34,094 nt of DNA, taken from the IMG/VR virus record IMGVR_UViG_3300029305_009617; one strand, written 5' to 3'. The notes under the pieces were generated by a model. It ran no database searches, had not been told where the DNA came from, and saw only the letters and a program-made list of their open reading frames with translations. Both the position numbers and the translations under genes were made by a program. This document shows, in pieces, positions 3,734 to 24,724 of the stretch; the stretch's first letter is position 1, and the number at the start of each line of letters is the position of its first letter. Origin of the DNA: an uncultured virus (IMG/VR IMGVR_UViG_3300029305_009617). Lineage: Duplodnaviria > Heunggongvirae > Uroviricota > Caudoviricetes.

Positions 3734-3748
3734 GAAAAGGAACAATTT

Positions 3749-6478
3749 ATGAGAAACAGAAGCTTATTTTATAAAGTTCAAATTTTTATATTGATATTAT
3801 TATCAGGGATTGTATTATCTTTTCTGCCTAACATTACTGCAAATGCATCTAACTATCATTCGTGGATGCGAGAAGGAGAAGAATTATATGGCGGTGATGT
3901 AGGAACACCTTCTGATACTTCAAATATTTTGAGTTATGAACCTAAAGATGATAGTGTACTCAAGCATTTAGTAAATTTAATCAATTCGTTTGCGGCATCT
4001 ATTAATGAACATCTGTTTAAAGTGGACGCAGCTGATTACAGTGTAAGTTTGAGTGGAATTGTAATGGGAAGATTGGCAGATTACAGAGTTTCCATACTTA
4101 AATTTGAACTGTTTGAAGACAATCCTTGGGGACTTGTTGGAAGCGTAGTATATGTGGCCTTTAGAAATATAATTTATGGTCTGATGCTGTTATATTGCGG
4201 GATGCTTTTAGTAAAACAGTTATTTAATAATGGCGCAAAAGGAAGGGCAGAATTAAAAGCTATCTCATCTACGGTACTATTTTTATTTTCCCTTCTTTAT
4301 ATTATGCCATGGTTTGCTAATATGTTTATTATTGGAAGAGATTCTATTATCCTTAATTTGGGAGAGCGAATGCTTGGGGTAAGAGGACTGGATATACATG
4401 ATTCCGTTCTGGAGGTTATGAGTATATCAGATGAAATAGATATTTTCCTTTCGCTGATTTACTTTGCACTTATGTTCGCACCTCTTTTTTATGTTGTAGG
4501 ATATGCTTCTATTGCGATGCAGGAAACTGCTCTTTTTGGATTGTTTCCTGTGGTTACCCTTTTATCTATACGGGATAAGAAGCTTCTTAATTCATGGTGT
4601 GGTATGTTTTTTTCAAATCTTGCAGTACCATTGCTGGATTATATTTTTTTGATGTTACCACTTATTATGAAGCTATTGGTTAATCCTGGAGGTGGAGAAA
4701 ACTTTGCATATGTGGTAGTGACTTTGTGTTGTATCTGGTCTGCACAGCCGGCACGTAACGCAATTCTTCGTCTATTTGGAAATATGGGCGGAGCACAGGC
4801 AAATATCGGTGGTATGGCTGCTCTTGGTATGGCTGCTATGCGAATGATGGGTGGTGGCTTTAGAGGCGCTTCTGGTTCCGGTGGTGTTACCTCAAGTGTT
4901 ACGGATGATTTAACAAATGCACAGAGATTTGAAAATCTGGCTGGAGGATTTAATGAAGCACTGGCAGATACGCAAAGAGAAGTAGATAAGATTGCTTCTG
5001 TTGATGATATCAACAGGGAGCTGTCAGCTATTGGTGGCGCAGAAGACAATGGTGTAATCATGAACTCTCTGGGAGATGGTCCTGCAGAAGGCGGTTCTTC
5101 TGGTATAGATACCTCAGAAATTGAGTTGGGAACTGGTGGTAATGCCGAAGCAATCATGGGAGATGAGGCAGAACCTGTTTTAGAGCCTGCACAGGCTGAT
5201 GCAGGTGAGGCTCCTGTGATAGAGGAAGCAGCACTTGACGAGGCAGGAAACAGTGAAATGTCCAATGGAATCTCTGCGGAGCGTGGCGCAGAAATGGAAG
5301 CTCAGGAAGACAATGGCACATTCTACAAACATGGTGAAATTCCAGCCGAAGAACTTTCACAGCGGCAGGTATTCCAGAATGCTCGTCTTGATAATTTGGA
5401 GAAACTGGATGCAGCAAAGGATGCACTGAACGACCAGCAACAAGCGGTGGATTTAGCGGAGCAGCGTTTTGCAAGTGTTGGTGGTGACGTTCCTGTTAAA
5501 GAAGCGAAACTTGCAGATAATGAAGCCCGTTTAAAGGATATATCTGATGAACTTAAAGCAAGTGAGTCGTATATGAAAAATTACGATAGAGAAAGTAAAG
5601 CATATCCATCCATGTCAGCGGATGAGAAGCAGATTTTTGACAGTAAGTATGCAGATGTTGAAACGCACAGGACTAATATTTCAAACCTGACCAATGAACA
5701 GGCGGCACTTACAGCGCAAAATGCAACGTTAACGAAAGAAATAAATGCGGTGAAAGCAAATCCAGAATATGCAAATGCAGCGCAAGCTGTAACCAATGCG
5801 AAAATCAAACGGGATAAGTTGTCTGAGGTTATTCAGAAACGAACAGATGCAGAAAAAGCGTATGCAACCATGATGGAAGGACAGGGCGGTAGTGGCAAGA
5901 CTTATGAGAATGCTCTTTCATACAAACACGCTATTAATACTGCCGAAATGAAAAACCGTCAGACCAGCTGGAGAAACTTTGATGCTCATGCAGATACAAG
6001 TGATATCTCACCGGATGAAAAGGCGGCATACTATCGCCAACGTGCAGAGCATAAGCAGAACCAGAAAGAGGTCAGCAACGTCGCTAAGGTTGCAGGAACG
6101 CTTGCTGGTGGTATTGCTGGTATGTATGGTGGAGTTGGTGCTATGGCAACAGGAGCAATGCTTGGATATGGTATATCTGAGACTACTGCAAATAAGGGTA
6201 TGGAATTCTATAACGACCGGAAAGACTATAAACAGGCTCAAAATGCGGGTCAGACGGAATCTCCAACGCCGGCACTTCAGAATAGTTCCGGAAGGAAATT
6301 TAACTATAGTAAGTTTGTTGAGACTAAGAAACAAGAGGCGAGAGCCAAAAATGCCCAGAAACAGGCAGAACAAAACAGTACTCCGATTGATGGACTGACT
6401 GACTTGATTCGTCCAACTGTACAATCTAATGCATCAAAGGCAGGATTTACCGTTAAAAATAATGATTCAGACAAATAG
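3749..6478 (+). CDS. VirB6/TrbL-like polytopic membrane protein with long Gly/acidic and coiled-coil cytoplasmic extension
   Basis: Multiple TM segments in the N-terminal ~350 aa, then Gly-rich, acidic, coiled-coil and glycine-zipper regions. Follows VirB4. Confidence 0.7.
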   Translation: MRNRSLFYKVQIFILILLSGIVLSFLPNITANASNYHSWMREGEELYGGDVGTPSDTSNILSYEPKDDSVLKHLVNLINSFAASINEHLFKVDAADYSVSLSGIVMGRLADYRVSILKFELFEDNPWGLVGSVVYVAFRNIIYGLMLLYCGMLLVKQLFNNGAKGRAELKAISSTVLFLFSLLYIMPWFANMFIIGRDSIILNLGERMLGVRGLDIHDSVLEVMSISDEIDIFLSLIYFALMFAPLFYVVGYASIAMQETALFGLFPVVTLLSIRDKKLLNSWCGMFFSNLAVPLLDYIFLMLPLIMKLLVNPGGGENFAYVVVTLCCIWSAQPARNAILRLFGNMGGAQANIGGMAALGMAAMRMMGGGFRGASGSGGVTSSVTDDLTNAQRFENLAGGFNEALADTQREVDKIASVDDINRELSAIGGAEDNGVIMNSLGDGPAEGGSSGIDTSEIELGTGGNAEAIMGDEAEPVLEPAQADAGEAPVIEEAALDEAGNSEMSNGISAERGAEMEAQEDNGTFYKHGEIPAEELSQRQVFQNARLDNLEKLDAAKDALNDQQQAVDLAEQRFASVGGDVPVKEAKLADNEARLKDISDELKASESYMKNYDRESKAYPSMSADEKQIFDSKYADVETHRTNISNLTNEQAALTAQNATLTKEINAVKANPEYANAAQAVTNAKIKRDKLSEVIQKRTDAEKAYATMMEGQGGSGKTYENALSYKHAINTAEMKNRQTSWRNFDAHADTSDISPDEKAAYYRQRAEHKQNQKEVSNVAKVAGTLAGGIAGMYGGVGAMATGAMLGYGISETTANKGMEFYNDRKDYKQAQNAGQTESPTPALQNSSGRKFNYSKFVETKKQEARAKNAQKQAEQNSTPIDGLTDLIRPTVQSNASKAGFTVKNNDSDK

Positions 6479-6483
6479 CTTTT

Positions 6484-6515
6484 ATGGGAGCGGCATGACC
6501 GCTCCCATTGCTTTT
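6484..6515 (+). terminator. Intrinsic terminator after the T4SS genes
   Basis: ATGGGAGCGG-catga-CCGCTCCCAT perfect stem followed by T-rich sequence. Confidence 0.75.
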
Positions 6516-6521
6516 CAAACC

Positions 6522-6540
6522 GTGTACGAAAAACAGAACA
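6522..6540. repeat. 19-bp motif GTGTACGAAA-NN-CAGARCA, copy 1
   Basis: GTGTACGAAAaaCAGAACA. Other copies at 7492 and 15043. Confidence 0.75.
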
Positions 6541-6559
6541 AGTATAAAAATGTATACCA

Positions 6560-6588
6560 TTTACATTAATAAAATTTTATTTTAGAAT
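6560..6588 (+). promoter_or_regulatory. SigA-like promoter for TA module 1 toxin mRNA
   Basis: TTTACA-17 nt-TAGAAT immediately upstream of the structured leader. Confidence 0.55.
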
Positions 6589-6677
6589 ATTAACAAGGTA
6601 CTACTAAGTACGGTAGCGGTTGCCCTTCTTTGTATATTGGAGGGTTTTCCCTCTAATCGAAAGAAAGGGGGATGCTT

Positions 6678-6740
6678 ATGGTTACATATGATGGATTATT
6701 TCAGTTCGGATTATTAATCGTTGCAATTATTAGCCTGTAA
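6678..6740 (+). CDS. Holin-like type I toxin peptide MVTYDGLFQFGLLIVAIISL (probably truncated by a 1-nt deletion)
   Basis: RBS AAAGGGG. The MVTY..LFQF + hydrophobic helix pattern is typical of Firmicutes putative holin-like toxins. 5'/3' UTR complementarity and an antisense promoter are present. Confidence 0.75.
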   Translation: MVTYDGLFQFGLLIVAIISL

Positions 6741-6751
6741 AGGCTTATAAT

Positions 6752-6840
6752 AAAAAATAAACCGCCAGCCTGGACAACTGCGGTTCATTTTTACCAACGT
6801 TATAAGGGTAACCGTCTGCAATACGGTAGTACCTCTTTAC
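6752..6840 (-). ncRNA. Antisense antitoxin RNA, TA module 1
   Basis: Minus-strand promoter TTGACT-17-TATTCT (6875-6847, extended -10 TGn). Ends in a hairpin at ~6755-6790. Confidence 0.65.
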
Positions 6841-6892
6841 TTTTTTAGAATAGCACTTAAGAATCTCGTAGTCAATATTATTAAGGCATCAA

Positions 6893-6982
6893 TTTAGAAT
6901 AAAAACAGCTGTTTTTATTCTAAAATTGAACGTTTTAACAGTAATTGTATTTATACAATTAAATTGCGATGTCGCAATTTAA
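6893..6982. repeat. Three stacked palindromes
   Basis: 32-bp perfect palindrome 6893-6924, 9-bp-arm IR 6942-6961 and 11-bp-arm IR 6959-6982. Confidence 0.85.
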
Positions 6983-7030
6983 ACATCAAATAAATTAATA
7001 TGAAGTCTTTCAGCGAAACTTAATAAAAGA

Positions 7031-7059
7031 TTGTATATCGTATTATTAATTGTTATAAT
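7031..7059 (+). promoter_or_regulatory. SigA promoter for TA module 2
   Basis: TTGTAT-17 nt-TATAAT with extended TG. Confidence 0.7.
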
Positions 7060-7177
7060 TAACCATGGGTGCTACCAAACGGTAAGCGGTTTGCCTTTCG
7101 CCAAAATGATTACATTTTGAGAACTTCCGGCATTCTGGAGGTGATACATATGGAAAATATGGAGAAAGGAATACTTG

Positions 7178-7306
7178 ATGTTAGATACTGTTCTGAAGAT
7201 AGTAGATATCATTATTAAAGCAATCGGGATGATTGTTAAAATAATTGATATTCTACAAAAATCCAAAGATAAACATCAAAAAGACAACCGCTCCGACCAA
7301 AGTTAG
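7178..7306 (+). CDS. 42-aa amphipathic peptide, putative type I toxin (MLDTVLKIVDIIIKAIGMIVKIIDILQKSKDKHQKDNRSDQS)
   Basis: RBS GAAAGGA. Amphipathic helix plus charged tail, inside the same RNA scaffold as module 1. Confidence 0.65.
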   Translation: MLDTVLKIVDIIIKAIGMIVKIIDILQKSKDKHQKDNRSDQS

Positions 7307-7368
7307 GTTGTCTTCTTGATAAGCAACTATTAACCAAGGCGAACCGTTTATCGGTAGCACCTCTTTAC
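7275..7368 (-). ncRNA. Antisense antitoxin RNA, TA module 2
   Basis: Minus-strand TTGACT-17-TATTCT (7403-7375). Its 5' end AAAGAGGTGCTACCGATAAACGGTT resembles module 1. Hairpin AGACAACC...GGTTGTCT. Confidence 0.65.
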
Positions 7369-7491
7369 ATTTTTAGAATAGCATTAAAAAAAATTGTAGT
7401 CAACATTTTATTTTGAACAACGATAGCCTATACTCGAGGCCGGTTGCAAGGAGATTCTATCATTCCATGAAAACTATGCAATCTGCTTTAA

Positions 7492-7510
7492 GTGTACGAA
7501 ATTCAGAACA
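7492..7510. repeat. 19-bp motif, copy 2
   Basis: GTGTACGAAAttCAGAACA. Confidence 0.75.
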
Positions 7511-7525
7511 TTTTTTGCAAATCTG

Positions 7526-7580
7526 TTGACATTTGTGATACCGGGTGGTATATATTATTTATAGACAGAACATTTGTTTG
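7526..7580 (+). promoter_or_regulatory. SigA promoter with LexA/DinR (SOS) box
   Basis: TTGACA-17-TATATT (7526-7554). GAAC-ATTT-GTTT at 7568-7579 matches the Firmicutes GAAC-N4-GTTC box. Confidence 0.7.
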
Positions 7581-7599
7581 CGCCAAAGGGGGTGTGGTT

Positions 7600-8394
7600 A
7601 TGACAATAGATAAAGATATAAATAACCTGTTAAATGTTTCAGAAATGCAGATTTATAATAGGATAGGAAGAGGAGATTCGCACCTTGTAATGGAAAAAAT
7701 AAATAGTATAATGAATCAGTTTATACGGCTTGCCAATTACAGGCACTCATCTGAAAGCCGACGTATTCCTGTAGGACTGGATATCTCAATAAATTACATC
7801 GTAAACAGCACTGGTCAAGGATATTTTTTAACAGATAATAATATATCTATTTCGATTCCTTATTTTGAATTAAGAGATTATAGGGCAGATTCAGAAGAGG
7901 AAAAAAAGGTATATCGTGATTATTTGTTTTCGCTGTTTGGGTACAGAATGCTTTGGGCTACTTCCATATATGAGTTACAGAATGATTTGGAGAGGTTAAT
8001 TGAATCGTTTAATGAGGATAATAAAAATAAGTGGAGTACTGTGAAAAGACCGATTGGCTATACCTTTCAGCAGATAGAATCTCACATACCACAACCGGCT
8101 CTGGGAGGCTTCACGTCAAGATATGAATACATCTGTATTGTAATTTATGAAGAAATTTGCAGGGATAGAGTGGATTTCCTGATAACAACAAATCAGGTAA
8201 AGGGAGTAGGAAGTCTTGAGGATATGGTTTGGTACTGGAATGATGGACGGGAAATCGGCAAAAATTTGGATGAAGATATCAAAAAATTCCCAGAGGAAGA
8301 GGGGTTGATATTTGATGAACCAACGATTATAATGAGAGACCCTTTCAGTCATGATGTAAAGGTGATTAAGGAGCGGCCATTTCCGCTTAAGTAG
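7600..8394 (+). CDS. Hypothetical protein (264 aa), predicted SOS-regulated
   Basis: ATG at 7600 after AAGGGGG. The upstream extension in the ORF track overlaps the promoter. No recognisable family. Confidence 0.75.
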   Translation: MTIDKDINNLLNVSEMQIYNRIGRGDSHLVMEKINSIMNQFIRLANYRHSSESRRIPVGLDISINYIVNSTGQGYFLTDNNISISIPYFELRDYRADSEEEKKVYRDYLFSLFGYRMLWATSIYELQNDLERLIESFNEDNKNKWSTVKRPIGYTFQQIESHIPQPALGGFTSRYEYICIVIYEEICRDRVDFLITTNQVKGVGSLEDMVWYWNDGREIGKNLDEDIKKFPEEEGLIFDEPTIIMRDPFSHDVKVIKERPFPLK

Positions 8395-8455
8395 TGGGCC
8401 TTATATGATGAAGGAAAAATTATTTCAGAAGATGATTTTAGAAAGGAGTTAGAGA

Positions 8456-8680
8456 ATGTGTTATCTAATAGCAAAGAAATTTGATGAAGAAGGCTGTCTT
8501 GCTGTTGAAGCAGAGCGCGGAAAAACTCTAGCTGCTTTAGTGACATATCTGGGACAAAAGACTTTGGATAAAGGAATTCAGATATTAACAGTAAGCGACA
8601 TGGATATGTATGGTGAATATAAACCATATAATCTTGTTGAAAGCGAATCTTTATTTATTCAAAAAGTATTAAGCATGTAA
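8456..8680 (+). CDS. Small hypothetical protein (74 aa)
   Basis: RBS GAAAGGAG, protein-like composition, and a terminator follows. Confidence 0.8.
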   Translation: MCYLIAKKFDEEGCLAVEAERGKTLAALVTYLGQKTLDKGIQILTVSDMDMYGEYKPYNLVESESLFIQKVLSM

Positions 8681-8685
8681 AAAGA

Positions 8686-8721
8686 GAGGAAGGTCTGGTT
8701 GCTAGCCAGGTCTTCTTTTTT
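8686..8721 (+). terminator. Intrinsic terminator
   Basis: GAAGGTCTGG-ttgctag-CCAGGTCTTC followed by a T-run. Confidence 0.7.
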
Positions 8722-8878
8722 ACTGCTTTTTTCAAGGTAAATGCAACCATCTTCTACTGTCAGAGTGATTGCAACTACGTGGTCGCATTAGATTTGAAAA
8801 ATCATACTTGCAGAAAAAGTGTGTAAATGCTTACATTTTTTATTGACTATAATTGTGATAAGTGCGTATAATGAATAT

Positions 8879-8967
8879 ACAAAGAGGTGCTACCGATAGA
8901 TGGTTAGTCCCCATTATATGTTTATAAAAAAATAACCGCTAGTTTGGAAGCTGGGCGGTTATTTTTG
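8879..8967 (+). ncRNA. Antitoxin-type sRNA, TA module 3 (inverted relative to modules 1 and 2)
   Basis: TTGACT-18-TATAAT promoter (8843-8872). 5' AAAGAGGTGCTACCGATAGATGGTT matches the module 2 antitoxin. Terminator AAAATAACCGC...GCGGTTATTTT. Confidence 0.7.
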
Positions 8968-9042
8968 TATTAATTCTCTCGCGATGGTATATCTGAATCC
9001 AAAGGCTGTTAGAACCGGGCTGACAACTGCAATCAAAAACAT
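8959..9042 (-). pseudogene. Possible Fst-like toxin remnant MFLIAVVSPVLTAFGFRYTIARELIQK
   Basis: 27-aa hydrophobic ORF whose stop abuts the sRNA terminator, as in module 1. No RBS or complementary leader upstream. Confidence 0.4.
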
Positions 9043-9084
9043 TTCAATGGTGTGTGGCGCAGTCAGTGTAAATGGGTGGTAAAT

Positions 9085-9577
9085 ATGATTGATACAATAA
9101 TTAGAAATACATATATTTATAAAAAAATCATAGTAAAAAGAAGCGAAAATGTAAAGGCCAGTTTTTTACGCCAGCATCAATAGCTGAATTTATGGCGCAT
9201 AGAGCAGTATTTGCGGCACAGCATTTATCAATATTAGAGCCGGGTGCTGGGAATGGGCTTTTAACTGCTTCTATTATTAAGTATTGTATTGAAAATGAAC
9301 TGTGTAATTCATTTGATGTAAAATTTGTTGAGAATGATGCAGATGTAATAGAATTACTCGAATCTACCATTTCTGTTATTATGAACTATGTAAATGATAA
9401 TAGTGGAAACATAAACATCTCGTTATTAACAGATAATTATATAACAACTGATATGGATGGGAAATATGATATCGTTATTTGTAATCCTCCATATAAAAAA
9501 ATACGGAAAGATTCCAAAGAATCCAATAGTATGAATAAATATGTATATGGACAACCAAATCTGTATGGTTTATTTAT
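9085..9577 (+). pseudogene. N6-adenine DNA methyltransferase (Eco57I/type IIG-like) fragment
   Basis: Motifs GQFFTP, ILEPGAGNG, ICNPPY, PNLYGLF. Frameshift at the A7 run 9121-9127 and truncation by an IS at 9578. Confidence 0.85.
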
Positions 9578-9695
9578 AACCCATGCGGACGAGAAAACCC
9601 ACGGTTTTAACCGTGGGGATGACAGTCCGTAAATATTTTAACTATATGTAGATGCACATGTTGATTACATCTACATGCTGTGATATACTAAAACT

Positions 9696-10097
9696 ATGAA
9701 AAATGAGTATAAACACACAAAAACAACTATATCACTAATTAACTACCACTTCGTGTTCTGCCCTAGATATCGCAGAAAAATTTTCAATATTGAGGGCGTA
9801 GAACGACGATTTAAAGAACTCACAATAACTGAATGTACTAAAAGCGGTATTGAAATACTTGCTTTGGAGTGCCATATAGACCATGTACATATATTTGTTA
9901 GTGTACTTCCAACAATGAGTATTCCAACAATCATGCAGCAAATAAAAGGTGCTACATCTGTAGAACTTAGAAAAGAGTTTCCACAGCTTAAAGCAATGCC
10001 TAGTCTTTGGACGAGAAGCTATTTCGTAAGTACAGCTGGCAATGTTAGTTCTGAAACTATTAAATGGTACGTTGATACGCAAAAAACAAGACCATAG
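9696..10097 (+). CDS. tnpA: IS200/IS605 Y1 transposase
   Basis: YHFVFCPRYRR, HUH motif DHVH, LWTRSYFVSTAG, catalytic YxxxQ (WYVDTQ). Confidence 0.95.
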   Translation: MKNEYKHTKTTISLINYHFVFCPRYRRKIFNIEGVERRFKELTITECTKSGIEILALECHIDHVHIFVSVLPTMSIPTIMQQIKGATSVELRKEFPQLKAMPSLWTRSYFVSTAGNVSSETIKWYVDTQKTRP

Positions 10098-10105
10098 GAG
10101 CGAAT

Positions 10106-11197
10106 ATGCAAAAAGGTATTAAGTTTAAAGCATATCCTAACAAAGAACAACAAAACTTAATAAATCAAACCCTTGGTTGTTGTAGACTCATCTACAACAA
10201 AGGTCTTGCTATGCGTAACGAAGCCTATGAATGTGGTACTAAAATCGGCTATAATCAAACCTCTGCCATGCTTACAGAGCTAAAGAAAACTGCCGATTTT
10301 TCATTTCTTAAAGAGGTAGACTCAATTGCTTTACAACAAGCTCTGCGTGACCTCGACAGAGGTTTTGTAAACTTTTTTCAGAAACGTGCTGCACACCCGA
10401 CATTCAAGAGCAAGCATAACTGCCACCAGTCGTACAGAACGGTAAACCAAGGGGATAACATCCGTATTGTAGACAAATATTTGAAATTGCCAAAATTGGG
10501 TTATGTTAAAATCAAACAGTCTATGGAGGTTGGCAAAATCAATAACGTAACCATAGAACGTACATCTTCTGGCAAGTATTTTGTAGTTCTTAATGTAGAT
10601 TTTGAGCCTGAACTAAAACCCAATAAAGGCGGTTCTATCGGTATTGATGTAGGTATCAAGGATTTTTACTCTGATTCCAATGGAAATGTAGTGAACAATC
10701 CTAAATATCTTGAAAAGTCAATGCGTAAGCTCATTAAAGAACAACGTAAGCTATCACGTAAGCAAAAAGGAGCTCATAATCGCAATAAGCAGCGTATGAA
10801 AGTAGCTTTGCTACATGAAAAGATTGCCAATCAAAGAAATGACTTTTTGCAAAAACAGTCTACTATGTTAGTGCGTGAAAACCAAACAATCTGCATAGAA
10901 GATTTGAATGTAAAAGGCATGATTCGAAATCATAAGCTTGCTAAAGCAATAGCAAGTGCTTCATGGTCGAAGTTCTTTACAATGCTTGCGTATAAGGCTA
11001 TTTGGTATGGTAATGATGTAATTAAAGTACCAACTATGTATCCAAGCAGTCAAACTTGTAGCTGTTGCGGTTACAAAAACCCATTGATAAAGAATCTGGC
11101 TGTCCGCAATTGGGAATGCCCAGAATGTCATACTAAGCATAATCGTGATATCAATGCAAGTATCAATATCTTAAACAAAGGGCTTGAAGTGGCCTAA
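10106..11197 (+). CDS. tnpB: RNA-guided endonuclease TnpB
   Basis: N-terminal HTH (YPNKEQ...GCCRLIYN), RuvC D-E-D (GIDVG, IEDL, RDINA), Zn ribbon CSCCG...CPEC. Confidence 0.95.
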   Translation: MQKGIKFKAYPNKEQQNLINQTLGCCRLIYNKGLAMRNEAYECGTKIGYNQTSAMLTELKKTADFSFLKEVDSIALQQALRDLDRGFVNFFQKRAAHPTFKSKHNCHQSYRTVNQGDNIRIVDKYLKLPKLGYVKIKQSMEVGKINNVTIERTSSGKYFVVLNVDFEPELKPNKGGSIGIDVGIKDFYSDSNGNVVNNPKYLEKSMRKLIKEQRKLSRKQKGAHNRNKQRMKVALLHEKIANQRNDFLQKQSTMLVRENQTICIEDLNVKGMIRNHKLAKAIASASWSKFFTMLAYKAIWYGNDVIKVPTMYPSSQTCSCCGYKNPLIKNLAVRNWECPECHTKHNRDINASINILNKGLEVA

Positions 11198-11417: not shown

Positions 11418-13010
11418 ATGGGACTTGTGTTGGAAAGTTGCTTTGATATATACGATATAATGGCAAGATGTTATTTGTATATGAAAAACGACAAAACGTT
11501 TGATTTTAATGATATTGATTCTGAGGAGCAAGAGTCAATAGATAATAAGATGATATCTAAAGAAATAAAATTAGTTATTAAAGCATACTTAGAGCGTAAG
11601 AGCGCAAAAGATCCTGACGCAAATTTATTCTTGATAAATTCATTGAAGCAGTTAAATAGCGAGTGGGTATTTGGTTCGGAAGAGTGTTATCAGATTATAA
11701 GGACTATTGATAATAACATAGGTTATTCTGTAAATGAAATTAATTTATATGACAGTTTTTTTAATACATATAGAAGTTTGAATACGGAATTAAATAATAA
11801 AGTAAGGATTTTTCCTATAATTACGGATAATTATCGTAATACAATTAATAAATATTATAGAAAAGCACATGAACAGGATTTTTTGAGAAAGAGAATAGCA
11901 TACGATAGCCGTTCTATAAATAAAATGCTTGAAAATTATATTTTTATGGATGATAGTGATTTTCAGCAATATACGCCTGTCATTCATGAGCTTATAAATT
12001 ATGAGTGTTTTATGGAACATATAGAAGATGACTATATGACAGTGGCTATTTTCCCCGTTACGAGTGTAAATTTAAATGATATTTTGAAAGTTAAGTACAG
12101 TAAGAATTATTTTGAGATAAAGGACATGGACGAAGATTATGAAAATATGATTATCGACAGATGTAACAGATTTATTAAATCACTTACTGGAACAATAGAT
12201 TTTCTGTTATTTCCCGAAATGCTCATGACTCCCAAAATAATAGCAGAAATAGAAAAAAATATCGAGCATTGTACTGCAGAGATAAGATTTGTAATATATG
12301 GTTCGCAGTGGAAATCGGGTTGTAATATTAGCGAAGTAAAATATAGGGGAGAAAATCTTTTTTCCTATTTTAAAAAAATCCCTTTTGAGATATCACTTGA
12401 TAAAAAGGGGTTGGAAAATTTAAAAAATAATTGTAAGGATGTAAATCAAAAAAAATTACTCCATTCTATACTGATGAATCATGATTTTGATAAAAATGAG
12501 AAGAAGATATTTCAAGAAAAATTAAAAGGTTTATCAGATGATAATAATCAGGTGCATATAATAGATATTAATAAATTAGGTAGAATATTTGTTTTTATAT
12601 GCAAAGATGTGAATGATCCAAAGTACACTAATACAGTTAAAATTCTTCATGGAGATATTTTGTTTGTTCCGGCATGTTCTCCTTCAATGGATTTAAATTC
12701 TGTACCAAAGGAAATGGCAGAACTGTTTCACTGCACTACGTTTATGTGTAACACTTGTGCCTCCTTATGTGATGGTATAAAAGATAGAAAAAATAAGATA
12801 AATAAGAAGGCAAGAATAGGTTTTATTACAACACCTGAGAAAGCGGGTTCGGAAAGAGAAGACAATAATATTTTTTATTGTTTTGATAAATCCTGCGAAA
12901 ATTGTGATAAAACGTGTCTGGGAAGAATTTATAATATGAATATCTCATCTTTTATAGAGGAGGATAATACAGTGAGCATGGATATAAAGGAAGCAGTGAG
13001 AAATTTTTGA
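11418..13010 (+). CDS. Protein with C-terminal nitrilase/carbon-nitrogen hydrolase fold
   Basis: E-K-C triad-like motifs LLFPEM, YFKKIPF, VFICKD, plus DILFVPA and FMCN. The N-terminal ~200 aa are unrecognised. Confidence 0.7.
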   Translation: MGLVLESCFDIYDIMARCYLYMKNDKTFDFNDIDSEEQESIDNKMISKEIKLVIKAYLERKSAKDPDANLFLINSLKQLNSEWVFGSEECYQIIRTIDNNIGYSVNEINLYDSFFNTYRSLNTELNNKVRIFPIITDNYRNTINKYYRKAHEQDFLRKRIAYDSRSINKMLENYIFMDDSDFQQYTPVIHELINYECFMEHIEDDYMTVAIFPVTSVNLNDILKVKYSKNYFEIKDMDEDYENMIIDRCNRFIKSLTGTIDFLLFPEMLMTPKIIAEIEKNIEHCTAEIRFVIYGSQWKSGCNISEVKYRGENLFSYFKKIPFEISLDKKGLENLKNNCKDVNQKKLLHSILMNHDFDKNEKKIFQEKLKGLSDDNNQVHIIDINKLGRIFVFICKDVNDPKYTNTVKILHGDILFVPACSPSMDLNSVPKEMAELFHCTTFMCNTCASLCDGIKDRKNKINKKARIGFITTPEKAGSEREDNNIFYCFDKSCENCDKTCLGRIYNMNISSFIEEDNTVSMDIKEAVRNF

Positions 13011-13066
13011 TCGGTATGAATCATCATAAGTGGTTTCATGATTTATAAGAAAGGGTATGCAGGGAA

Positions 13067-14005
13067 ATGAACTTTTTCCCTGTTAGGTATTTTATGGCGA
13101 GAAACAGAGAGATAAATTTGTTATTAGATTATGTAGAAGTTGAGAATAAAAAAAAGAATAGCTCCAGAGTTGTTGAAAATATGGAAGTAAAAATGCGGGT
13201 CAATTCTGCCAGTGGTTCTCTTATAAACATACTTATAGGACAAATTAGGGATATGCGTAATATCCGTAGTGATGTTGAGTATTTGATTGCAAATAAAAGT
13301 AAGATAATCGAATTGTCCTTGAGAAGAAGAAAAGAAATTGAAAACCTGATGGGTCAGAAAAATAGAACTTACTTATCCGAACTACTAGACCTGTATAATA
13401 CCTCTGTTTTTATAAAAACTTCTATTAATATATTAGAACAGGATGTAAAATATAAAAGAGATTTATTGAAGTGTCGAAAATACTTTTTGAATGACGCTTC
13501 TGATATATATGAATATTTGTACTGGAATGATGATGTGAATATAAGTGCTTTATCTCGTGAAACGAAAAAAGATATGGATTCTATTTATCGTGTGTTTTTA
13601 GAGCATGAAGAACTGGTTAAGAAAAAGAGAAAAGAGGATGAGACAGAACCATCTTATTCGCTATCTTTAAAGGGGAAGGAACTATATTCGTTATATAAAA
13701 GTGAATATAGAAATATTGCTACTGACGAAACACGACAAGTCCAGGATGAAGATAAATTAAATGAAGTATTAGAATTTCTAATACAATATGCTCAGGATAA
13801 AAAAGAACCTAAATTTAGGAAGGCCCCTGTATTAAGAACTGCACGAGCAAGGGAGAATTTTGCAAAATTGAAATCTTTAATTGATGGAGAAAAAGGATAT
13901 AAGTATGGTTCTATTATAGATGAGCTATATGAAAGCAGGATGAGTAAGATACAGCCGGATTATGCAATTGTTGTTGAACGAAAAAAGGGGAGAATGTATG
14001 AATAA
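13067..14005 (+). CDS. Hypothetical protein with probable winged-helix domain
   Basis: 'NISALSRETKKDMDSIYRVF...LVKK...YSLSLKGKELY' resembles a MarR-type wHTH. Confidence 0.55.
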   Translation: MNFFPVRYFMARNREINLLLDYVEVENKKKNSSRVVENMEVKMRVNSASGSLINILIGQIRDMRNIRSDVEYLIANKSKIIELSLRRRKEIENLMGQKNRTYLSELLDLYNTSVFIKTSINILEQDVKYKRDLLKCRKYFLNDASDIYEYLYWNDDVNISALSRETKKDMDSIYRVFLEHEELVKKKRKEDETEPSYSLSLKGKELYSLYKSEYRNIATDETRQVQDEDKLNEVLEFLIQYAQDKKEPKFRKAPVLRTARARENFAKLKSLIDGEKGYKYGSIIDELYESRMSKIQPDYAIVVERKKGRMYE

Positions 14006-14648
14006 ATTATTTTATAAAAGTATGTTTCATTCTTTAGATGATGAAGAAATTAAAAACGTTGAAATATGTTATGACGAATTAAAGAAAATAATCGGAAATA
14101 ATTTTCAGGAAATAGTCAATAACGATGCTATTAAAATAAAAAAAGAATATAAAAATCAGTTCGACAGATTTTTATACGAGTTATTGTTAATATATCCGAA
14201 AATCAACATGGATATGTTTAAAACTGAAATAGAATTACTGGAAGATATGTCGGAAGGGATGTTTTGGAATATTGTTTTAGATTATTGTGACCAATGTAAT
14301 CATGTAAAGGAAAAAACAAAATTTATCCAAGAGTTGGACCAGACAGAGTATGAGAGAATTATAGAATATGTATTTGAAAGGTATGTAAGACACCATAATT
14401 ATATTGTTTCTTATGACGAATATGATGAGGAAAAAATAAAGGTGTTGATTAAATATGTTAATACAATCCTTTCCTGTGTAATAGAAGATTTTTTTGATTT
14501 AGACAGAATAGTAGAGGAATATGCTGCTAAATTCGGATTAGATACGTGCAAATTAGAATATGCCTACAATTTGGTAAACTCAAATAAAATAGAATTAATG
14601 CTTAAAAACATTATCTGCAATTTTCAGGAAATAAAAATAGATGATTAA
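13998..14648 (+). CDS. Acidic helical hypothetical protein (216 aa)
   Basis: ATG overlaps the upstream gene's end. RBS GGGGAG. Confidence 0.75.
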   Translation: MNKLFYKSMFHSLDDEEIKNVEICYDELKKIIGNNFQEIVNNDAIKIKKEYKNQFDRFLYELLLIYPKINMDMFKTEIELLEDMSEGMFWNIVLDYCDQCNHVKEKTKFIQELDQTEYERIIEYVFERYVRHHNYIVSYDEYDEEKIKVLIKYVNTILSCVIEDFFDLDRIVEEYAAKFGLDTCKLEYAYNLVNSNKIELMLKNIICNFQEIKIDD

Positions 14649-14664: not shown

Positions 14665-14701
14665 GTGAACTACTCGGTTATGCAATTGCCGAGTAGTTCA
14701 C
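14665..14701. terminator. Stem-loop after the three-gene operon
   Basis: GTGAACTACTCGG...CCGAGTAGTTCAC, 13-bp perfect stem. Confidence 0.65.
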
Positions 14702-14752
14702 GTATAAAAATGGTTATGCTTGAATGTGCTGATAGCATATGTTATAATAATA

Positions 14753-14828
14753 TAGATTAGGAATGATTTTGATGTGCCATGGCTGACACAAATCGAAAAC
14801 CCCAGAGTTGCAGCTCTGGGGTTTTTGA
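14753..14828 (+). ncRNA. Putative short sRNA (orphan antitoxin-like)
   Basis: TTGAAT-17-TATAAT promoter just upstream and an AAAACCCCAGAG-ttgcag-CTCTGGGGTTTT terminator, with no convincing ORF between them. Confidence 0.55.
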
Positions 14829-15218: not shown

Positions 15219-15566
15219 ATGACAGAATTTGTAGGGGCAGAGCATCTGATTGCCAGGATGCTTATTGAAAAAGGAAAGCAGGAAATCTCAACGGCTGAGT
15301 TAAATAGACTCGGAATTTATGTAAGACGGTTATCTATTAAGGAAGGAGTAGATGCGGTTTTTCTCACTTCGCGAGAGGAAGTTTATTCGGCAGTTTATGA
15401 TTATTCGGATTATTTTGAATGTATTTATGATGCTGATGAACGTTTGACTGGTATTAAAATTAACGCTAGCAAGAATGCAGAAGACTTGAATTTGAAATTT
15501 ATTAAATTTTTGCCGGAAGACATTATAGGGTTACTTGACAGAGCAATAAGAGAGTTGGCAGCTTAA
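15219..15566 (+). CDS. Hypothetical protein (115 aa), partner of the HD gene
   Basis: RBS GAGGA/AAGGG. Ends 22 bp before the HD gene. Confidence 0.75.
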   Translation: MTEFVGAEHLIARMLIEKGKQEISTAELNRLGIYVRRLSIKEGVDAVFLTSREEVYSAVYDYSDYFECIYDADERLTGIKINASKNAEDLNLKFIKFLPEDIIGLLDRAIRELAA

Positions 15567-15588
15567 TTAACAGCAGAGGGTACAGAAG

Positions 15589-17199
15589 ATGAAGCAATTT
15601 AAAGACCCAATTTATGGATACGTAGATGTTGAAACCCGCTATATTCCTGTAATTAACTCGGCTGAATTTCAAAGGCTCAGAAGTATACGACAGACGGGTT
15701 ATGCGTCGTTATATCCAAGTGCTCTTCATAATAGATTTGTACATTCATTAGGGGTACTCCACTTAGGGAAGAAAGCGGTTAATTCATTAAGGGATAATAT
15801 TGGCAATCAATTAGGTGATAATTTTGATAAGGAATATGACTGGGATAGATTGAAAGAAACTTTTATCCTTGCATGTTTGTTGCATGATGTTGGACATTCT
15901 CCTTTTTCGCATACTGGAGAAGCTTTTTATGCTCAAAGTACAATTTTTGAAGAAGAATTCCAAGAATTAATACATTCTGAAGAATTAAATAGGGATTTAA
16001 TTCTTCATGGCTATGGAAAACCTCATGAGGCTATGAGCGCTATTATCGGCATAAAACTGTTAGAAGAAAAAAGAGTAGAAATAGATAAAGAATTTTTTGC
16101 ACGGGCAATCATGGGAACGGAGTATTCTGCAAAAGATACTAAGTATCAAATACGAAATTGCCTAATCAGTATTCTAAATGGAAACCTAATAGATGTGGAT
16201 AAACTGGACTATTTAATGCGTGACGCGTATGTAACAGGCTATTCCACAATGAAGATTGATTATGAACGCTTATTGGCTGGCTATACAATAGTAAAGATAA
16301 GTACTAAGACTTGTGGAGATGTATTAAAAGCGGCTTTTAAAAAGGGTGCCCTTAGTATTATTGAAAACATTACGTATGCTAATGATTTGGAACGCAGGTG
16401 GATACAGAGTAATCCTACTATATTATATGATTGTAAACTGGTTGAATTTGCAATTATGCGTTATAATCAGTATATGTCTCAGACTTATGAAGGATTGAAA
16501 AAATATGGTAATGTTTTTAACAAGGTTGCTATATCGAAGGAAGGTTTTAAAGAAGAAGATAAGGTAGATTTGCGGCTGTTATGTGACGATGATATAATAA
16601 CCTATTTGAAAAATGTCGACAATAGTATTATAGGGGAACATTATTTTTCCAGAGATAAACGTTACAAACCATTATGGAAAACAGAAGGTGAATACATAAC
16701 AAAAGTAAAAGAAGGTATTGCACCTCGTAAACTGGAGAGACTTTTTGATGTTTTACGTGGCAGTTTAAGTTATTTTCGGATCTTTTTTATTAATTCAGAA
16801 GAATTGCTTCGGTTAGAAAGAGAAAAAACTACGAATCAACCGGATAAGCAGGGTAAGTATGATTCACCGATATCGCTTGTAAAATTCTTTGAAAAATTTG
16901 CAGATGATTTTGGACTGGAATTTGAATTTGCAATCATAAGAGAAAATGCTTTTACAAGTAACCGTGAAAAGATGGAAAAAAATCCTATTTATATTAAAAT
17001 CGATGAGACGGAAACTTCTACGTTCATTGATTTAATGTATGGAAAAGAAAAATCGGTTAATACTGGAAAAGATAAAATGAATGATACGCAGTTGTTCTAT
17101 GTCTATACATCCAAACGTAATCTTGAAATAGCTAAAGAAAAAGGAATGAAATTGTCTGATGAACTTATAGATTATTTGAATTCTAATTGGAGTAATTAA
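15589..17199 (+). CDS. HD-domain dNTP triphosphohydrolase (SAMHD1/dGTPase-like)
   Basis: KDPIYG, FQRLRSIRQ, HNRFVHSLG, LLHDVGHSPFSH, PHE, DVDKLDYLMRD. Confidence 0.9.
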   Translation: MKQFKDPIYGYVDVETRYIPVINSAEFQRLRSIRQTGYASLYPSALHNRFVHSLGVLHLGKKAVNSLRDNIGNQLGDNFDKEYDWDRLKETFILACLLHDVGHSPFSHTGEAFYAQSTIFEEEFQELIHSEELNRDLILHGYGKPHEAMSAIIGIKLLEEKRVEIDKEFFARAIMGTEYSAKDTKYQIRNCLISILNGNLIDVDKLDYLMRDAYVTGYSTMKIDYERLLAGYTIVKISTKTCGDVLKAAFKKGALSIIENITYANDLERRWIQSNPTILYDCKLVEFAIMRYNQYMSQTYEGLKKYGNVFNKVAISKEGFKEEDKVDLRLLCDDDIITYLKNVDNSIIGEHYFSRDKRYKPLWKTEGEYITKVKEGIAPRKLERLFDVLRGSLSYFRIFFINSEELLRLEREKTTNQPDKQGKYDSPISLVKFFEKFADDFGLEFEFAIIRENAFTSNREKMEKNPIYIKIDETETSTFIDLMYGKEKSVNTGKDKMNDTQLFYVYTSKRNLEIAKEKGMKLSDELIDYLNSNWSN

Positions 17200-17288: not shown

Positions 17289-17409
17289 TGCAACGCAAAG
17301 TATTTATAATTATTTGGAAATTCTTTTTCATAACTTATTGCATTTCATATGTACAATTCGAATAATTAAAAGTAAGAGATATATTCTGAAAAATCTGGAG
17401 GAGGTAAAA

Positions 17410-18576
17410 ATGGCAAATTATCATATCTTGTTTGGTTTTAGGCAGGAAGAACTGGAATTAAAAATTGTAAACATAATTAAAAAAAAGGGGCATGATGTAA
17501 TTTATGCAGAGAGGGATAGTAAAGAAAGCATCAGGGCCTATCTTAGTGAACATAAAGACTGTGCTTGTGCAGTTCTTAGAGAAGGCATGGGAGAAGAAGC
17601 TTATTCTGCTGAAGATTTTGCGGAGCTTACAGACGAAAGGGATATTAATATCGTTGCTATTGTAGAAGGAATACATAAGGGAACGGATTATATGCAGACT
17701 CTTTATGGGGCAGGAATTACGAGTGCTATTTTGGTCTCAGATAAAGTAGGAGCTTTCCCGGCAGACATTGCCCGGTTGCTGATGGAAAAGAGGACTAGGA
17801 AACAAGCCCGGAAAACATATGGAATCATAGGAAATAAGATTAAGCTGGATGTAATTACGTATGAGACATATGTGCATTATTATACAAAGCTTGTAAATAT
17901 GGAAGAGGGTATCAATATTGTAGATAGGTATTTATCCATTGTAAAAGAGTTATCTGTTAAACAGGCGGCTGATTTCACAAAAAAACTGCCACTGGAACTT
18001 CGCCGGGAATTAACAAAGTATGAAGAATTTCATATTGTTTTAGACAGTATGAGGCGACAAGGAATTCCTGTGAATATTAAAAAGCCAGCAGATGTAAGAA
18101 AAGGGCTTACCGATGAGGAATTTATGCGTGCGATAGGGAAACGCCAGGCAAAAGCGAAAAAGGTGTCGGCGCAGATAATTGTGCCAGAAGTAGATGAGAA
18201 ACAGGCTGTTGCGGATAAAAAATCAGGAAGTGGTAAAACAAAAACGGATAAATCTGTGGCAACTGGATTGACTGCAGAGGCAGAAGAAAATGTATTTTTT
18301 CAGGAACAGGAGGAAAAAGAGAATTCTTCAACTGAGATAAATGCTTCTGAAAACAATGCAGTTAGGGAAGTTTCGCCGGTAGAGAAAAAACCAACTTCAA
18401 TCAAAAATGAGTTGCCAAAACAGACAGTAAAAAAGAAGGAGACTTCGAAACCCATAAAAAGGGATATGAGCAAAAAAGAAAAAAAGAATGGCATACGATG
18501 GAAATATATATTAATAACATTTTTCGCAGGCCTTATCGTTTTGGGTTTGTGGTATGTTCTTTTGATGTATCTTTGA
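17410..18576 (+). CDS. Hypothetical protein: receiver-like alpha/beta N-terminus, charged linker, C-terminal TM anchor
   Basis: GGAGGAGG RBS before ATG 17410. The C-terminus is a hydrophobic helix. Confidence 0.75.
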   Translation: MANYHILFGFRQEELELKIVNIIKKKGHDVIYAERDSKESIRAYLSEHKDCACAVLREGMGEEAYSAEDFAELTDERDINIVAIVEGIHKGTDYMQTLYGAGITSAILVSDKVGAFPADIARLLMEKRTRKQARKTYGIIGNKIKLDVITYETYVHYYTKLVNMEEGINIVDRYLSIVKELSVKQAADFTKKLPLELRRELTKYEEFHIVLDSMRRQGIPVNIKKPADVRKGLTDEEFMRAIGKRQAKAKKVSAQIIVPEVDEKQAVADKKSGSGKTKTDKSVATGLTAEAEENVFFQEQEEKENSSTEINASENNAVREVSPVEKKPTSIKNELPKQTVKKKETSKPIKRDMSKKEKKNGIRWKYILITFFAGLIVLGLWYVLLMYL

Positions 18577-18685
18577 TTTTTGTATAGTCATGTACAAGTG
18601 TAAGGCCAGATATTGTATAACTATTTATTGTATATACAACATTTGTTATTCTTCGCAGTTTTTTTAAAAAAATTTGTAAATTTTA

Positions 18686-18714
18686 TTGATTTTTGTAAAT
18701 AATTAAAGTATAGT
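18686..18714 (+). promoter_or_regulatory. Putative SigA promoter
   Basis: TTGATT-17-TATAGT in a 270-bp intergenic region. Confidence 0.45.
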
Positions 18715-18843
18715 CAGTATCGAAGAACAAAAACGACATATAATATACAAAACCAATCAAAAGATTGGGTTTTTTTTAACAGTAATGAAATACAAAAACA
18801 ATATAAATAATACATAATCAAAAAACATAAGAGGAAATGCCAA

Positions 18844-19260
18844 ATGGAACGACAAAATTATAACGGTCATTGCAGGCAAAAAATATCTATGGGGCAAATG
18901 AGGACAGTTAATGAACAGGTTAATCAACTGCCTCCGATAGGAACAGAAGTTGTAGTTTATGAAAATGTACTGCTAACAGAAAGACAAAAAAGAAAATTTA
19001 GGAAAACGGCGCAATATATGCCTTCAGACAGTTATTTTGATGCTCATGATCATCCACGTACATGGATCATAGACAGGTATACAGGTGGAATTGATAATCC
19101 ACTGGATAAAAAAAACTGGGTGCAGCTTGTTAACAGTGAAAATAAGTATATTACATTTAGGAGTTCTATCAGAACCGTATTAATTGCTACGGGACATTTT
19201 AAGCTGGTACCAATAAGTAAGAGTGTTGATATACAGGAGGTATCGTATGTTAAAGATTAA
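18844..19260 (+). CDS. Hypothetical protein (138 aa)
   Basis: RBS AGAGG. Overlaps the next start. Confidence 0.7.
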   Translation: MERQNYNGHCRQKISMGQMRTVNEQVNQLPPIGTEVVVYENVLLTERQKRKFRKTAQYMPSDSYFDAHDHPRTWIIDRYTGGIDNPLDKKNWVQLVNSENKYITFRSSIRTVLIATGHFKLVPISKSVDIQEVSYVKD

Positions 19261-19675
19261 AAAGGCAGTTTTGCTAATGCTCCTGCTATTACTGGCGACT
19301 GTTATGTGTTCTGGATGTATGACCCCTGCGGAGATTTATGAAAAATCAAAAAAATATGAGGCAACGGATGAACAGCTTAAAGCATTAGCAGAAGGAAAAT
19401 TAACAGTAAGTTATGATAAAGAAAGCTTTGATTCCTATATTGATTATTTAAAATATTTGGCGGCAAGTTACATTACGTCAGGCAGCCAGAGTATAAAACA
19501 ATATGCAGTTCCATTAGGCTCAACAAGTATTGCGATTGGTCTTGTGTTGATGGGTCTAGGGAAAAGGTCCATGAGGATTAGAAAATTTGCATTGTTTGTA
19601 TTTGTAATAGGAATTCCCGCATTTATTATATGTCTTATTTATGCAGCAGCTTTTTTAGCAGATGCAGCATCGTAG
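19247..19675 (+). CDS. Putative lipoprotein with two C-terminal TM helices (VirB2/TrbC-pilin-like C-terminus possible)
   Basis: AGGAGG RBS, signal peptide with lipobox-like CSGC, and two hydrophobic segments separated by a basic loop. Confidence 0.55.
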   Translation: MLKIKKAVLLMLLLLLATVMCSGCMTPAEIYEKSKKYEATDEQLKALAEGKLTVSYDKESFDSYIDYLKYLAASYITSGSQSIKQYAVPLGSTSIAIGLVLMGLGKRSMRIRKFALFVFVIGIPAFIICLIYAAAFLADAAS

Positions 19676-19689
19676 AAGGAGAAAAGTAT

Positions 19690-20637: not shown

Positions 20638-20640
20638 TCA

Positions 20641-22397: not shown

Positions 22398-22498
22398 TTT
22401 CAACACCTCTTTAATGGTATTTTTTGGAAATTATTATAAATTATTTTGCAAATATATTCAATAGAAAACCCTGTTAAAAAGGGGAAAGGGTATTTGGA

Positions 22499-23521: not shown

Positions 23522-23532
23522 GGGATGTAGAT

Positions 23533-24696: not shown

Positions 24697-24724
24697 TTTT
24701 ATTTAGACGGAGTGAGCGTAATAT

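Follow-up and report, generated by a model that had tools for sequence, protein, structure and literature searches.

This locus raises the question of whether a nitrilase-fold protein can serve as the effector of a defence system that does without a reverse transcriptase (RT). The window analysed here is a whole stretch of 34,094 nucleotides filed as an uncultured virus (IMG/VR record IMGVR_UViG_3300029305_009617), and positions 11418-14648 of its plus strand carry three same-strand open reading frames (ORFs), g1, g2 and g3, referred to below as the cassette (Table 1). From the letters alone, a first-pass annotation had proposed that these genes encode a stand-alone nitrilase-fold enzyme, a winged helix-turn-helix protein and an acidic protein, and that together they make up a new defence system. 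The reading that we favour, to which we give a probability of about 40%, is that the three genes would form a self-contained, horizontally mobile conflict cassette with a nitrilase effector, serving most probably in defence against phages or other mobile elements.

Fold and active site of gene 1

A word-indexed search returned 17 relatives of g1, and the AlphaFold2 model built from 17 sequences reached a predicted local distance difference test (pLDDT) value of 79.8 and a predicted template modelling score (pTM) of 0.83. When this model was compared with the PDB by Foldseek, 103 matches were obtained at E ≤ 1e-3, and all of those listed belonged to the nitrilase superfamily. Re-alignment with VIA placed residues 205-520 on yeast Nit2 (4hg3_D) with a Z of 16.0 and a root-mean-square deviation (rmsd) of 3.3 Å over 225 residues, and 197 of 1000 chains reached Z ≥ 8 to g1. 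Both methods found the four-layer alpha-beta-beta-alpha sandwich in the model, which bears out the nitrilase fold proposed at first pass. In a search of the PDB with a profile of 90 diverse members of the g1 family, 25 of the 26 matches at E ≤ 1 were likewise nitrilase-superfamily proteins, mouse Nit2 being the best (3.7e-5).

Single-sequence and curated-model searches were far less productive. The g1 sequence by itself had no match among PDB sequences, and the Pfam model CN_hydrolase (PF00795) did not match it at E ≤ 1; of 44 relatives compared with the same model, 12 gave weak matches, and only P0068 (24.4 bits) exceeded the gathering cut-off of 23.2 bits. Because membership is recovered by fold and by profile without a match to the curated model, g1 appears to represent a deeply divergent branch of the nitrilase superfamily, with a predicted and apparently active catalytic set. 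Its best matches are the single-domain enzymes of the Nit2/omega-amidase type (4hg3; mouse Nit2, 2w1v; Nit3, 1f89), with Z values of 15-16, and they share with it both the sandwich and the Glu-Lys-Glu-Cys positions. However, g1 is 9-18% identical to these enzymes and below the Pfam threshold, has an extra domain of 200 residues and a cluster of four cysteines (447, 493, 496 and 500), and is linked in an operon to two non-enzymatic partners. The omega-amidase, carbamoylase, NAD-synthetase glutaminase, pantetheinase and N-terminal amidase branches were all touched weakly by the g1 profile, which, since it scores several amidase branches in this way, discriminates none of them.

The predicted catalytic positions are almost invariant among the 90 members, with Glu267, Glu367 and Cys395 present in 90/90 and Lys319 in 89/90. 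In the profile alignment, the family motifs FPE, K..PF, Y.E.L and IC.D pair with the PE, K, E and C motifs of mouse Nit2, which we take to hold its catalytic Glu, Lys, second Glu and Cys. The corresponding motifs of g1 itself, FPEM (265-268), KKIPF (319-323) and ICKD (394-397), lie in invariant or near-invariant family columns. The Glu-Lys-Cys triad that had looked intact at first pass was thus recovered, and Glu367 is to be added to it. In the subgroup to which the window protein belongs, a helical segment of about 40 residues is inserted between Lys319 and Glu367.

Two other parts of the protein are family-specific. Cys447 and Cys500 are conserved in 90/90 members, Cys496 in 87/90 and Cys493 in 66/90, a pattern that suggests a metal site which ordinary nitrilases lack. 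In the N-terminal domain, D13 (87/90) and D98 (88/90) are conserved, together with N122, R157 and N173. The best template modelling (TM) score for this domain in an Atlas structure search was 0.33, without any fold match, in keeping with its earlier description as an unmatched domain; a new fold is not claimed. When a profile of the 17 relatives was scored against 1.84 billion representatives, 695 matched at E ≤ 1e-3, of which 444 reached ≤ 1e-10 and 113 reached ≤ 1e-30. The 150 matches listed are 144-593 aa long, and none among them is fused to a larger protein.

Partner genes, gene order and mobility

The description of the locus as an AT-rich three-gene operon held, as the guanine-plus-cytosine (GC) content is 28.9% in the cassette and 36.1% in the remaining window, and the minimum among 1-kb segments (27.8%) falls at 11501-12500. 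On the longest ORFs, g2 and g3 overlap by 44 nt, and with the g3 start at 13998 by 8 nt (ATGAATAA); this start has a GGGGAG ribosome-binding site 7 nt upstream and agrees with the starts of the homologues. Because an overlap exists under either start, the two genes are predicted to be translationally coupled, as had been suggested. In length, the 303-aa version of g2 agrees with database copy P0018. A small hairpin spans the first ATG of g2 and might favour the Met10 start or affect translation of the gene. The hairpin noted earlier at the end of the operon begins 17 nt past the g3 stop codon, and the 72-nt stretch containing it has a folding energy of -27.6 kcal/mol (z -5.5; 0 of 200 shuffles as stable). 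A canonical, strong bidirectional terminator follows downstream, about 50 nt after a promoter-like site, and this pair (14720-14828) could give a very small transcript. Rfam at gathering thresholds recognised no RNA family in the window. Neither g1, g2 nor g3 was recognised by Pfam, NCBIfam, PADLOC or PHROGs at the thresholds used. The predicted isoelectric point is 9.1 for g2, a basic protein, and 4.7 for g3, which is acidic as first described.

Table 1. Positions of the cassette genes, of their predicted parts and of neighbouring features in the window
Feature	Position	Strand	Description
g1	11418..13010	+	ORF; 530-aa two-domain protein, putative effector enzyme
g1 N-terminal domain	11418..12014	+	residues ~1-199; helical bundle plus beta strands; family-specific
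g1 nitrilase-superfamily (C-N hydrolase) domain	12015..12977	+	residues ~200-520
Glu267 codon	12216-12218	+	predicted catalytic tetrad
Lys319 codon	12372-12374	+	predicted catalytic tetrad
Glu367 codon	12516-12518	+	predicted catalytic tetrad
Cys395 codon	12600-12602	+	predicted catalytic tetrad
Cys447/Cys493/Cys496/Cys500 cluster	12756..12917	+	CxxCxxxC plus one; family-specific
g2	13067..14005	+	ORF; 312 aa, or 303 aa from Met10 at 13094
g2 MarR/ArsR-like winged helix-turn-helix	13445..13735	+	residues ~127-223; predicted structure
g3	13998..14648	+	acidic helical protein; 216 aa from Met13; longest ORF from 13962, 228 aa
Hairpin after g3	14665-14701	+	14-bp perfect stem, without U-tract
Hairpin over first g2 ATG (13067)	13059-13083		9 bp; z -2.1
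Promoter-like site	14720-14748		TTGAAT-17-TATAAT, with TG
Terminator	14793-14828		canonical, bidirectional
Eco57I-type N6-adenine methylase, N-terminal part	9123-9632		motifs EPGAGNG, NPPY
IS200/IS605 tnpA	9696-10097		directly after methylase fragment
IS200/IS605 tnpB	10106-11197
115-aa acidic ORF, then 536-aa HD-domain protein	15219-17199
256-aa ORF	21636-22406	-	weak integrase matches (PHROGs 1.7e-4)

The model of g2 has a pLDDT of 54 overall and of 75-91 over residues 130-210, which adopt a helix-helix-helix-strand-strand topology; long helices are predicted, with low confidence, before and after this part. In a Foldseek-independent search of 48,161 chains, the 50 best matches listed were all winged-helix proteins (Z 9.3-11.3), and E. 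coli MarR (5h3r_A) was aligned with a Z of 10.6 and an rmsd of 1.4 Å over 76 residues. The best Foldseek match was MepR (9.4e-4). These searches agree with the winged helix-turn-helix called at first pass, and g2 is predicted to hold a MarR-like winged helix with putative DNA binding. Residues 127-223 have the same fold as the MarR/ArsR regulators, but g2 is two to three times longer, and its family measures 260-370 aa versus the compact MarR dimer architecture of about 150 aa. MarR Pfam models matched neither g2 nor seven homologues, and the best match of the g2 profile among PDB sequences was a Pyrococcus transcription factor (E 0.05).

Single-sequence searching with the window g2 found only its own copies and no further homologue. 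In the one viral-contig locus, L024, the gene that follows g1 nevertheless shares 30% identity with the window g2 (E 3e-20). A single-sequence profile of the window g2 gave a probability of 0.2% against seven g2 homologues, and the relation was seen only after L024 was added, when the winged-helix part of the pair could be aligned with that of the main g2 family (hhalign probability 85%, E 5.9e-6). The motif YFN...SLSxxGK is common to the g2 proteins. The window g3 is homologous to the third gene elsewhere (E 5e-29 for L024 and 8e-8 for L002), and no relative was found in Pfam, in PDB sequences, where the profile gave chance-level matches only, or in the Atlas (best TM 0.41). Atlas searches with g3 and the g1 N-terminal domain reached a best feature match of 0.80, with nothing usable. 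The prediction of a g2-g3 complex scored 0.08 against a mark of 0.32 and is used as evidence neither way.

Conservation of the gene order was followed in two sets of loci. The first comprised 16 loci (nine from species genomes, six from metagenomes and one viral), and the second 11 new loci obtained when 401 genomes from the family to which G001 belongs (Lachnospiraceae) were searched by profile. Homologues of g2 and g3 occur in the same order in all 12 loci of the first set with an intact g1 and enough downstream DNA. Three others are uninformative, L005 and L022 ending just past g1 and L023 being a fragment with a partial g2, and L001 is degraded, with an internal deletion in g1 and an 80-aa g3 remnant behind it. 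In 8 of the 11 loci of the second set, BLAST groups the gene that follows g1 with the g2 proteins, and overall a g2 homologue directly follows g1 in 20 of 23 informative loci, which answers the question of co-occurrence elsewhere put by the first-pass annotation. Within the conserved module, g2 and g3 overlap or lie end to end. The third gene is the most variable part of the cassette: in the second set it is related to g3 by BLAST in L072 and by profile (probability 83%) in L069, L071 and L076, and has no relation to g3 detectable by either method in L068, L070, L074 and L077. No g2 or g3 could be detected in L067, L073 and L075. In L073, an 891-aa helicase-like ORF with a DEAH motif (5-2680) is convergent to the g1 homologue and may be an alternative partner or a mere neighbour; its BLAST match to g3 (E 0.003) was judged spurious.

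Identity between the window and L024 is 41% for g1, 30% for g2 and 33% for g3, and no BLAST match links the window g2 to the L002 group, so the partners appear to diverge faster than the enzyme. The g1 gene is damaged in three loci, by the internal deletion in L001, by a TGA codon that splits it in L072 and by N-terminal truncation in L069. The L001 copy (7962-9447), in which about 120 residues are deleted (391-395 aa), corresponds to three near-identical database clusters, one of them on 21 contigs, and this decayed type has spread.

The three genes are gained and lost as one unit. Of 49 genomes in the genus of G001, 47 have the ABC-exporter gene that lies ahead of the L002 cassette and five have g1, three of these five carrying the cassette at the exporter site. 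In three species, that of L002 among them, about 3.6-3.7 kb comprising exactly g1-g2-g3 lies between the exporter terminator and a glyoxalase gene, and in two species the site is empty, with about 92-94 bp from terminator to glyoxalase gene. The exporter of the empty-site species is 88-89% identical, as close as that of G002. No recombinase or repeat was seen at the insertion joints.

In 19 of 21 loci the AT content of the cassette exceeds that of its flanks (mean difference -6.8 GC points; Wilcoxon p 4.8e-6, with some loci sharing ancestry), the two exceptions, L067 and L075, being also among those without detectable g2 or g3. A full-length g1 match (E ≤ 1e-30) was present in 12 of the 401 family genomes (about 3%), and in a sample of the class in 1 of 399, namely the query genome. 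A further 59 of the 401 gave weak catalytic-core matches only, lying in ordinary frames of about 260-430 aa (one of 610) among the matches listed. Locations of the cargo type include the plasmid-like backbone of the window, a region of L009 resembling an integrative and conjugative element (ICE) with TraG-like and single-stranded-DNA-binding protein genes, and the viral contig L024, where a Cro/CI-like gene is found near the cassette. The DNA of the window cassette also occurs in contigs of six animal-faeces metagenome runs.

The backbone of the window is collinear with the transfer region of plasmid pNP144 from Butyrivibrio hungatei, so that the window probably belongs to a large conjugative plasmid or ICE carried by a gut Firmicute. 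On the two sides of the island that holds the cassette, five genes in all match this plasmid in the same order (268-6478 and 17314-27046). The VirB4-like ATPase, aligned over 99% of its length, shows 44.7% identity, and the other backbone genes, including one of the PrgI family, are 23-39% identical. Between the homologues of 3749-6478 and 17314-18576, pNP144 has one gene and the window has 10.8 kb of cargo. Most of the backbone proteins have no Pfam family, the 773-aa backbone protein has no phage match, and megablast of the window flanks against phage and plasmid collections gave no matches.

Known nitrilase effectors and possible roles of the cassette

Nitrilase domains are reported as required effectors, of unknown substrate, in DRT1 and UG5/DRT11 (PMC13275509, PMC13436386, PMC9226505), and they are considered uncommon in anti-phage defence by the authors of the DRT1 work (PMC13275509). 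Published accounts also describe the nitrilase of UG5-small and UG6 as a separate gene (PMC13436386), an RT-nitrilase plus TM system (PMC9122126), and the C-N hydrolase domain as one of the effector-type domains of bacterial NACHT proteins (bioRxiv 10.1101/2022.07.19.500537). The class 3 UG/Abi RTs (DRT1/UG1, UG5-large, which is DRT11, UG5-small, UG6 and UG29) resemble the present case in having a nitrilase-superfamily presumed effector with an intact catalytic set within a mobile accessory system. In those systems, however, the RT is fused or adjoining, whereas the window cassette has none, the enzyme is accompanied by a winged-helix protein and an acidic one, and the N-terminal domain and Cys cluster are peculiar to g1.

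As the first-pass annotation had noted, no RT is evident: Pfam RT families were absent from 29 window ORFs scanned and PADLOC DRT models from 10. Of the related loci scanned, only L006, with fragments of group II introns, and L076, with a type II-A retron apart from the cassette, had RT-type genes, and the DRT models matched neither g1 (E ≤ 0.1) nor four of its relatives (E ≤ 1e-5). Of the parallel drawn earlier with the RT-linked nitrilases, the similar effector domain and the missing RT therefore stand, and no special kinship to the DRT nitrilases was detected with PADLOC. The C-N hydrolases of NACHT proteins, likened here by description only, are fusions to an NTPase sensor, whereas g1 stands alone with separate partners. 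In the portions available of the literature found (including bioRxiv 10.1101/2024.10.26.620412), a stand-alone nitrilase cassette of this kind is not described, and the earlier statement that no named system matches holds for the libraries and literature searched, although supplementary candidate lists (PDC-type; domain-centric operons, e.g. PMC13069673) could hold the family.

With these parts, the cassette could be an RT-independent immune system, a proposal made with some reserve, in which a stand-alone, strongly diverged C-N hydrolase with a sensor-like N-terminal domain and a metal-binding Cys cluster, under the control of winged-helix and acidic partners, would kill infected cells or arrest them. 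In the favoured conflict reading g1 would be the effector, using Glu267-Lys319-Glu367-Cys395 and bearing the family-specific domain and cluster, and g2 and g3, made together by the predicted translational coupling, would be the sensor or regulator, holding the operon or the enzyme inactive as long as no signal from an invader is present. Active g1 would then attack an amide (or nitrile) group in some essential macromolecule or metabolite, and this hydrolysis would halt the growth of the infected cell, as proposed for the DRT1 nitrilase domain. What we infer is the function in defence, the part of g2 and g3 in regulation, any contacts among the three proteins and the substrate. If this holds, an RT-free cassette would be the simplest system for finding the targets of nitrilase effectors, and an effector with only two small partners would offer a much simpler handle on DRT1-type chemistry. 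Even without a defence role, an uncurated protein family with two fixed partner families and about 700 cluster representatives is defined here, and its frequency in Firmicutes of the animal gut is high enough to justify naming and testing it.

The neighbourhood of the cassette was scanned with PADLOC over flanking ORFs of at least 90 aa, about 6-8 kb on each side, and matches were counted at E ≤ 1e-20. Matches of ABC ATPases to mad3, of a TraG-like ATPase to mad8, of a topoisomerase to DpdF and of UvrD-type helicases to GajB were left out as generic, as was the mad3/LmuB match of a 1192-aa protein in L068. Loci L004 and L007 (same context as L002), L021 and L005 (same as L020) and the degraded L001 were dropped, and ten 16-kb regions from the same contigs of four cassette genomes, treated alike, served as controls. 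In the non-redundant first set, 5 of 9 contexts had a non-generic match: L002 (PDC-S27), L019 (PDC-M68A), L006 (NsnA/GmrSD-like, with GmrSD/Schlafen-like genes adjoining), L024 (GmrSD-like, and NsnA/PD-T4-2-like on both sides) and L018. In the last of these, full-length NsnB (7e-93) and NsnC (7e-92), preceded by a weak NsnA-like match, are encoded at 1543-4354, 1.6 kb upstream of the cassette; these Nsn genes sit inside a polysaccharide-synthesis locus. In the second set the count was 3 of 11, namely L067 (PDC-M51A), L069 (PDC-S34 directly after the cassette) and L076. The L076 region is a small defence islet in a Lachnospiraceae genome, with a type II-A retron (NDT 1.7e-81, RT 1.9e-107) and PDC-S15 at 6200-9114, 2-5 kb from a divergent cassette. 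Two of the ten control regions scored as well, L034 (PDC-M72A) and L035 (type I restriction-modification plus WYL). The trend is in the expected direction and some of the adjacencies are striking, but it is not significant, and no association with defence islands is established.

Several results weigh against a defence role. Non-generic matches were found in 8 of 20 contexts versus 2 of 10 controls (one-sided Fisher p=0.25, in a small sample), and for established system types only in 4 of 20 versus 1 of 10 (p=0.45). Housekeeping or unrecognised neighbours alone surround the cassette in 12 contexts, and in L003 it lies between the spoIIIA operon and a sigma factor. No PADLOC model matches any of the three proteins. 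Among 2.9 million viral contigs, searched with two pattern sets, L024 was the only locus, and tblastn with g1 found no match in 50,697 phage and 72,556 plasmid records. Finally, an amidase beside a MarR-like regulator is a classic detoxification layout. Of the defence system first proposed, what stands is thus a conserved, RT-free and mobile cassette, whereas the defence role itself is not carried by the neighbourhood counts. Patchy spread, foreign composition, cargo locations, fast divergence of the partners and repeated inactivation of g1 nevertheless incline us, tentatively, to the conflict reading.

The detoxification layout leads to the best of the alternatives, which we regard as unlikely: g1 would detoxify or catabolise a gut nitrile or amide (e.g. 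plant-derived nitriles), with g2 as a ligand-responsive MarR-like repressor and g3 as an accessory protein. The complete nitrilase-type catalytic set of g1 and the MarR-like winged helix of g2 would suit such a role, as would the occurrence of the cassette in gut and rumen Firmicutes and in the six faecal metagenome runs and the many loci where the neighbours are housekeeping genes only. Against this, g1 is far from ordinary nitrilases in its missing CN_hydrolase match, its additional domain and its Cys cluster, and g2, with its length and its long helices, fits no MarR Pfam model. Moreover, no transporter or further catabolic gene is conserved beside the cassette, the partners diverge faster than the enzyme, and 59 of the 401 genomes already hold ordinary nitrilase-superfamily genes of 270-300 aa, a number obtained by subtracting the 12 genomes with a full-length match from the 71 with a match of any kind.

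More doubtful is an addiction module of the toxin-antitoxin kind that stabilises mobile elements or islands, in which g1 would be toxic and g2 and/or g3 would neutralise it and auto-repress the operon. The plasmid-like, ICE-like (L009) and viral carriers are compatible with it, and so are the coupling of g2 and g3, the pairing of a predicted DNA-binding partner with an acidic one, and the inactivation of g1 in three loci, with the partners remaining in at least L072. The proteins, however, are much larger than typical type II pairs and the enzyme gene comes first; most loci are chromosomal, between core genes and free of mobile-element genes within about 8 kb, and no PADLOC or Pfam toxin or antitoxin model matches. 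A weapon of the mobile element against its host or rival elements (anti-defence, exclusion or establishment), instead of host immunity, seems improbable, for although the window cassette lies inside a transfer region, where the genes on either side are collinear with those of the pNP144 type IV secretion block, and one homologue is in a viral contig near the Cro/CI-like gene, most copies are chromosomal without recognisable element genes adjoining, and the two viral scans and the phage and plasmid records yielded that single locus.

Neighbouring genes in the window

The cargo island of the window comprises, in this order, an unknown 300-aa ORF, a methylase fragment, an IS200/IS605 element, the cassette, a 115-aa ORF and an HD protein. 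The Eco57I-type methylase is present only as its N-terminal part, directly followed by the IS200/IS605 genes, and since the remainder is missing, a restriction-modification gene appears to have been destroyed beside the cassette. Farther away, a 256-aa ORF on the minus strand with weak integrase matches interrupts the collinear plus-strand backbone, and it is absent from that place in pNP144.

Downstream of the cassette, the first 110 residues or so of the HD protein gave a partial match to dGTP triphosphohydrolases and anti-phage dGTPase (PADLOC 3.7e-11, NCBIfam 7e-11). This gene was considered as a fourth member of the cassette and rejected, because no related locus has an HD gene adjoining the cassette. 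The protein also matches phrog_35128 (8e-25) and may be a separate, nucleotide-depleting defence gene.

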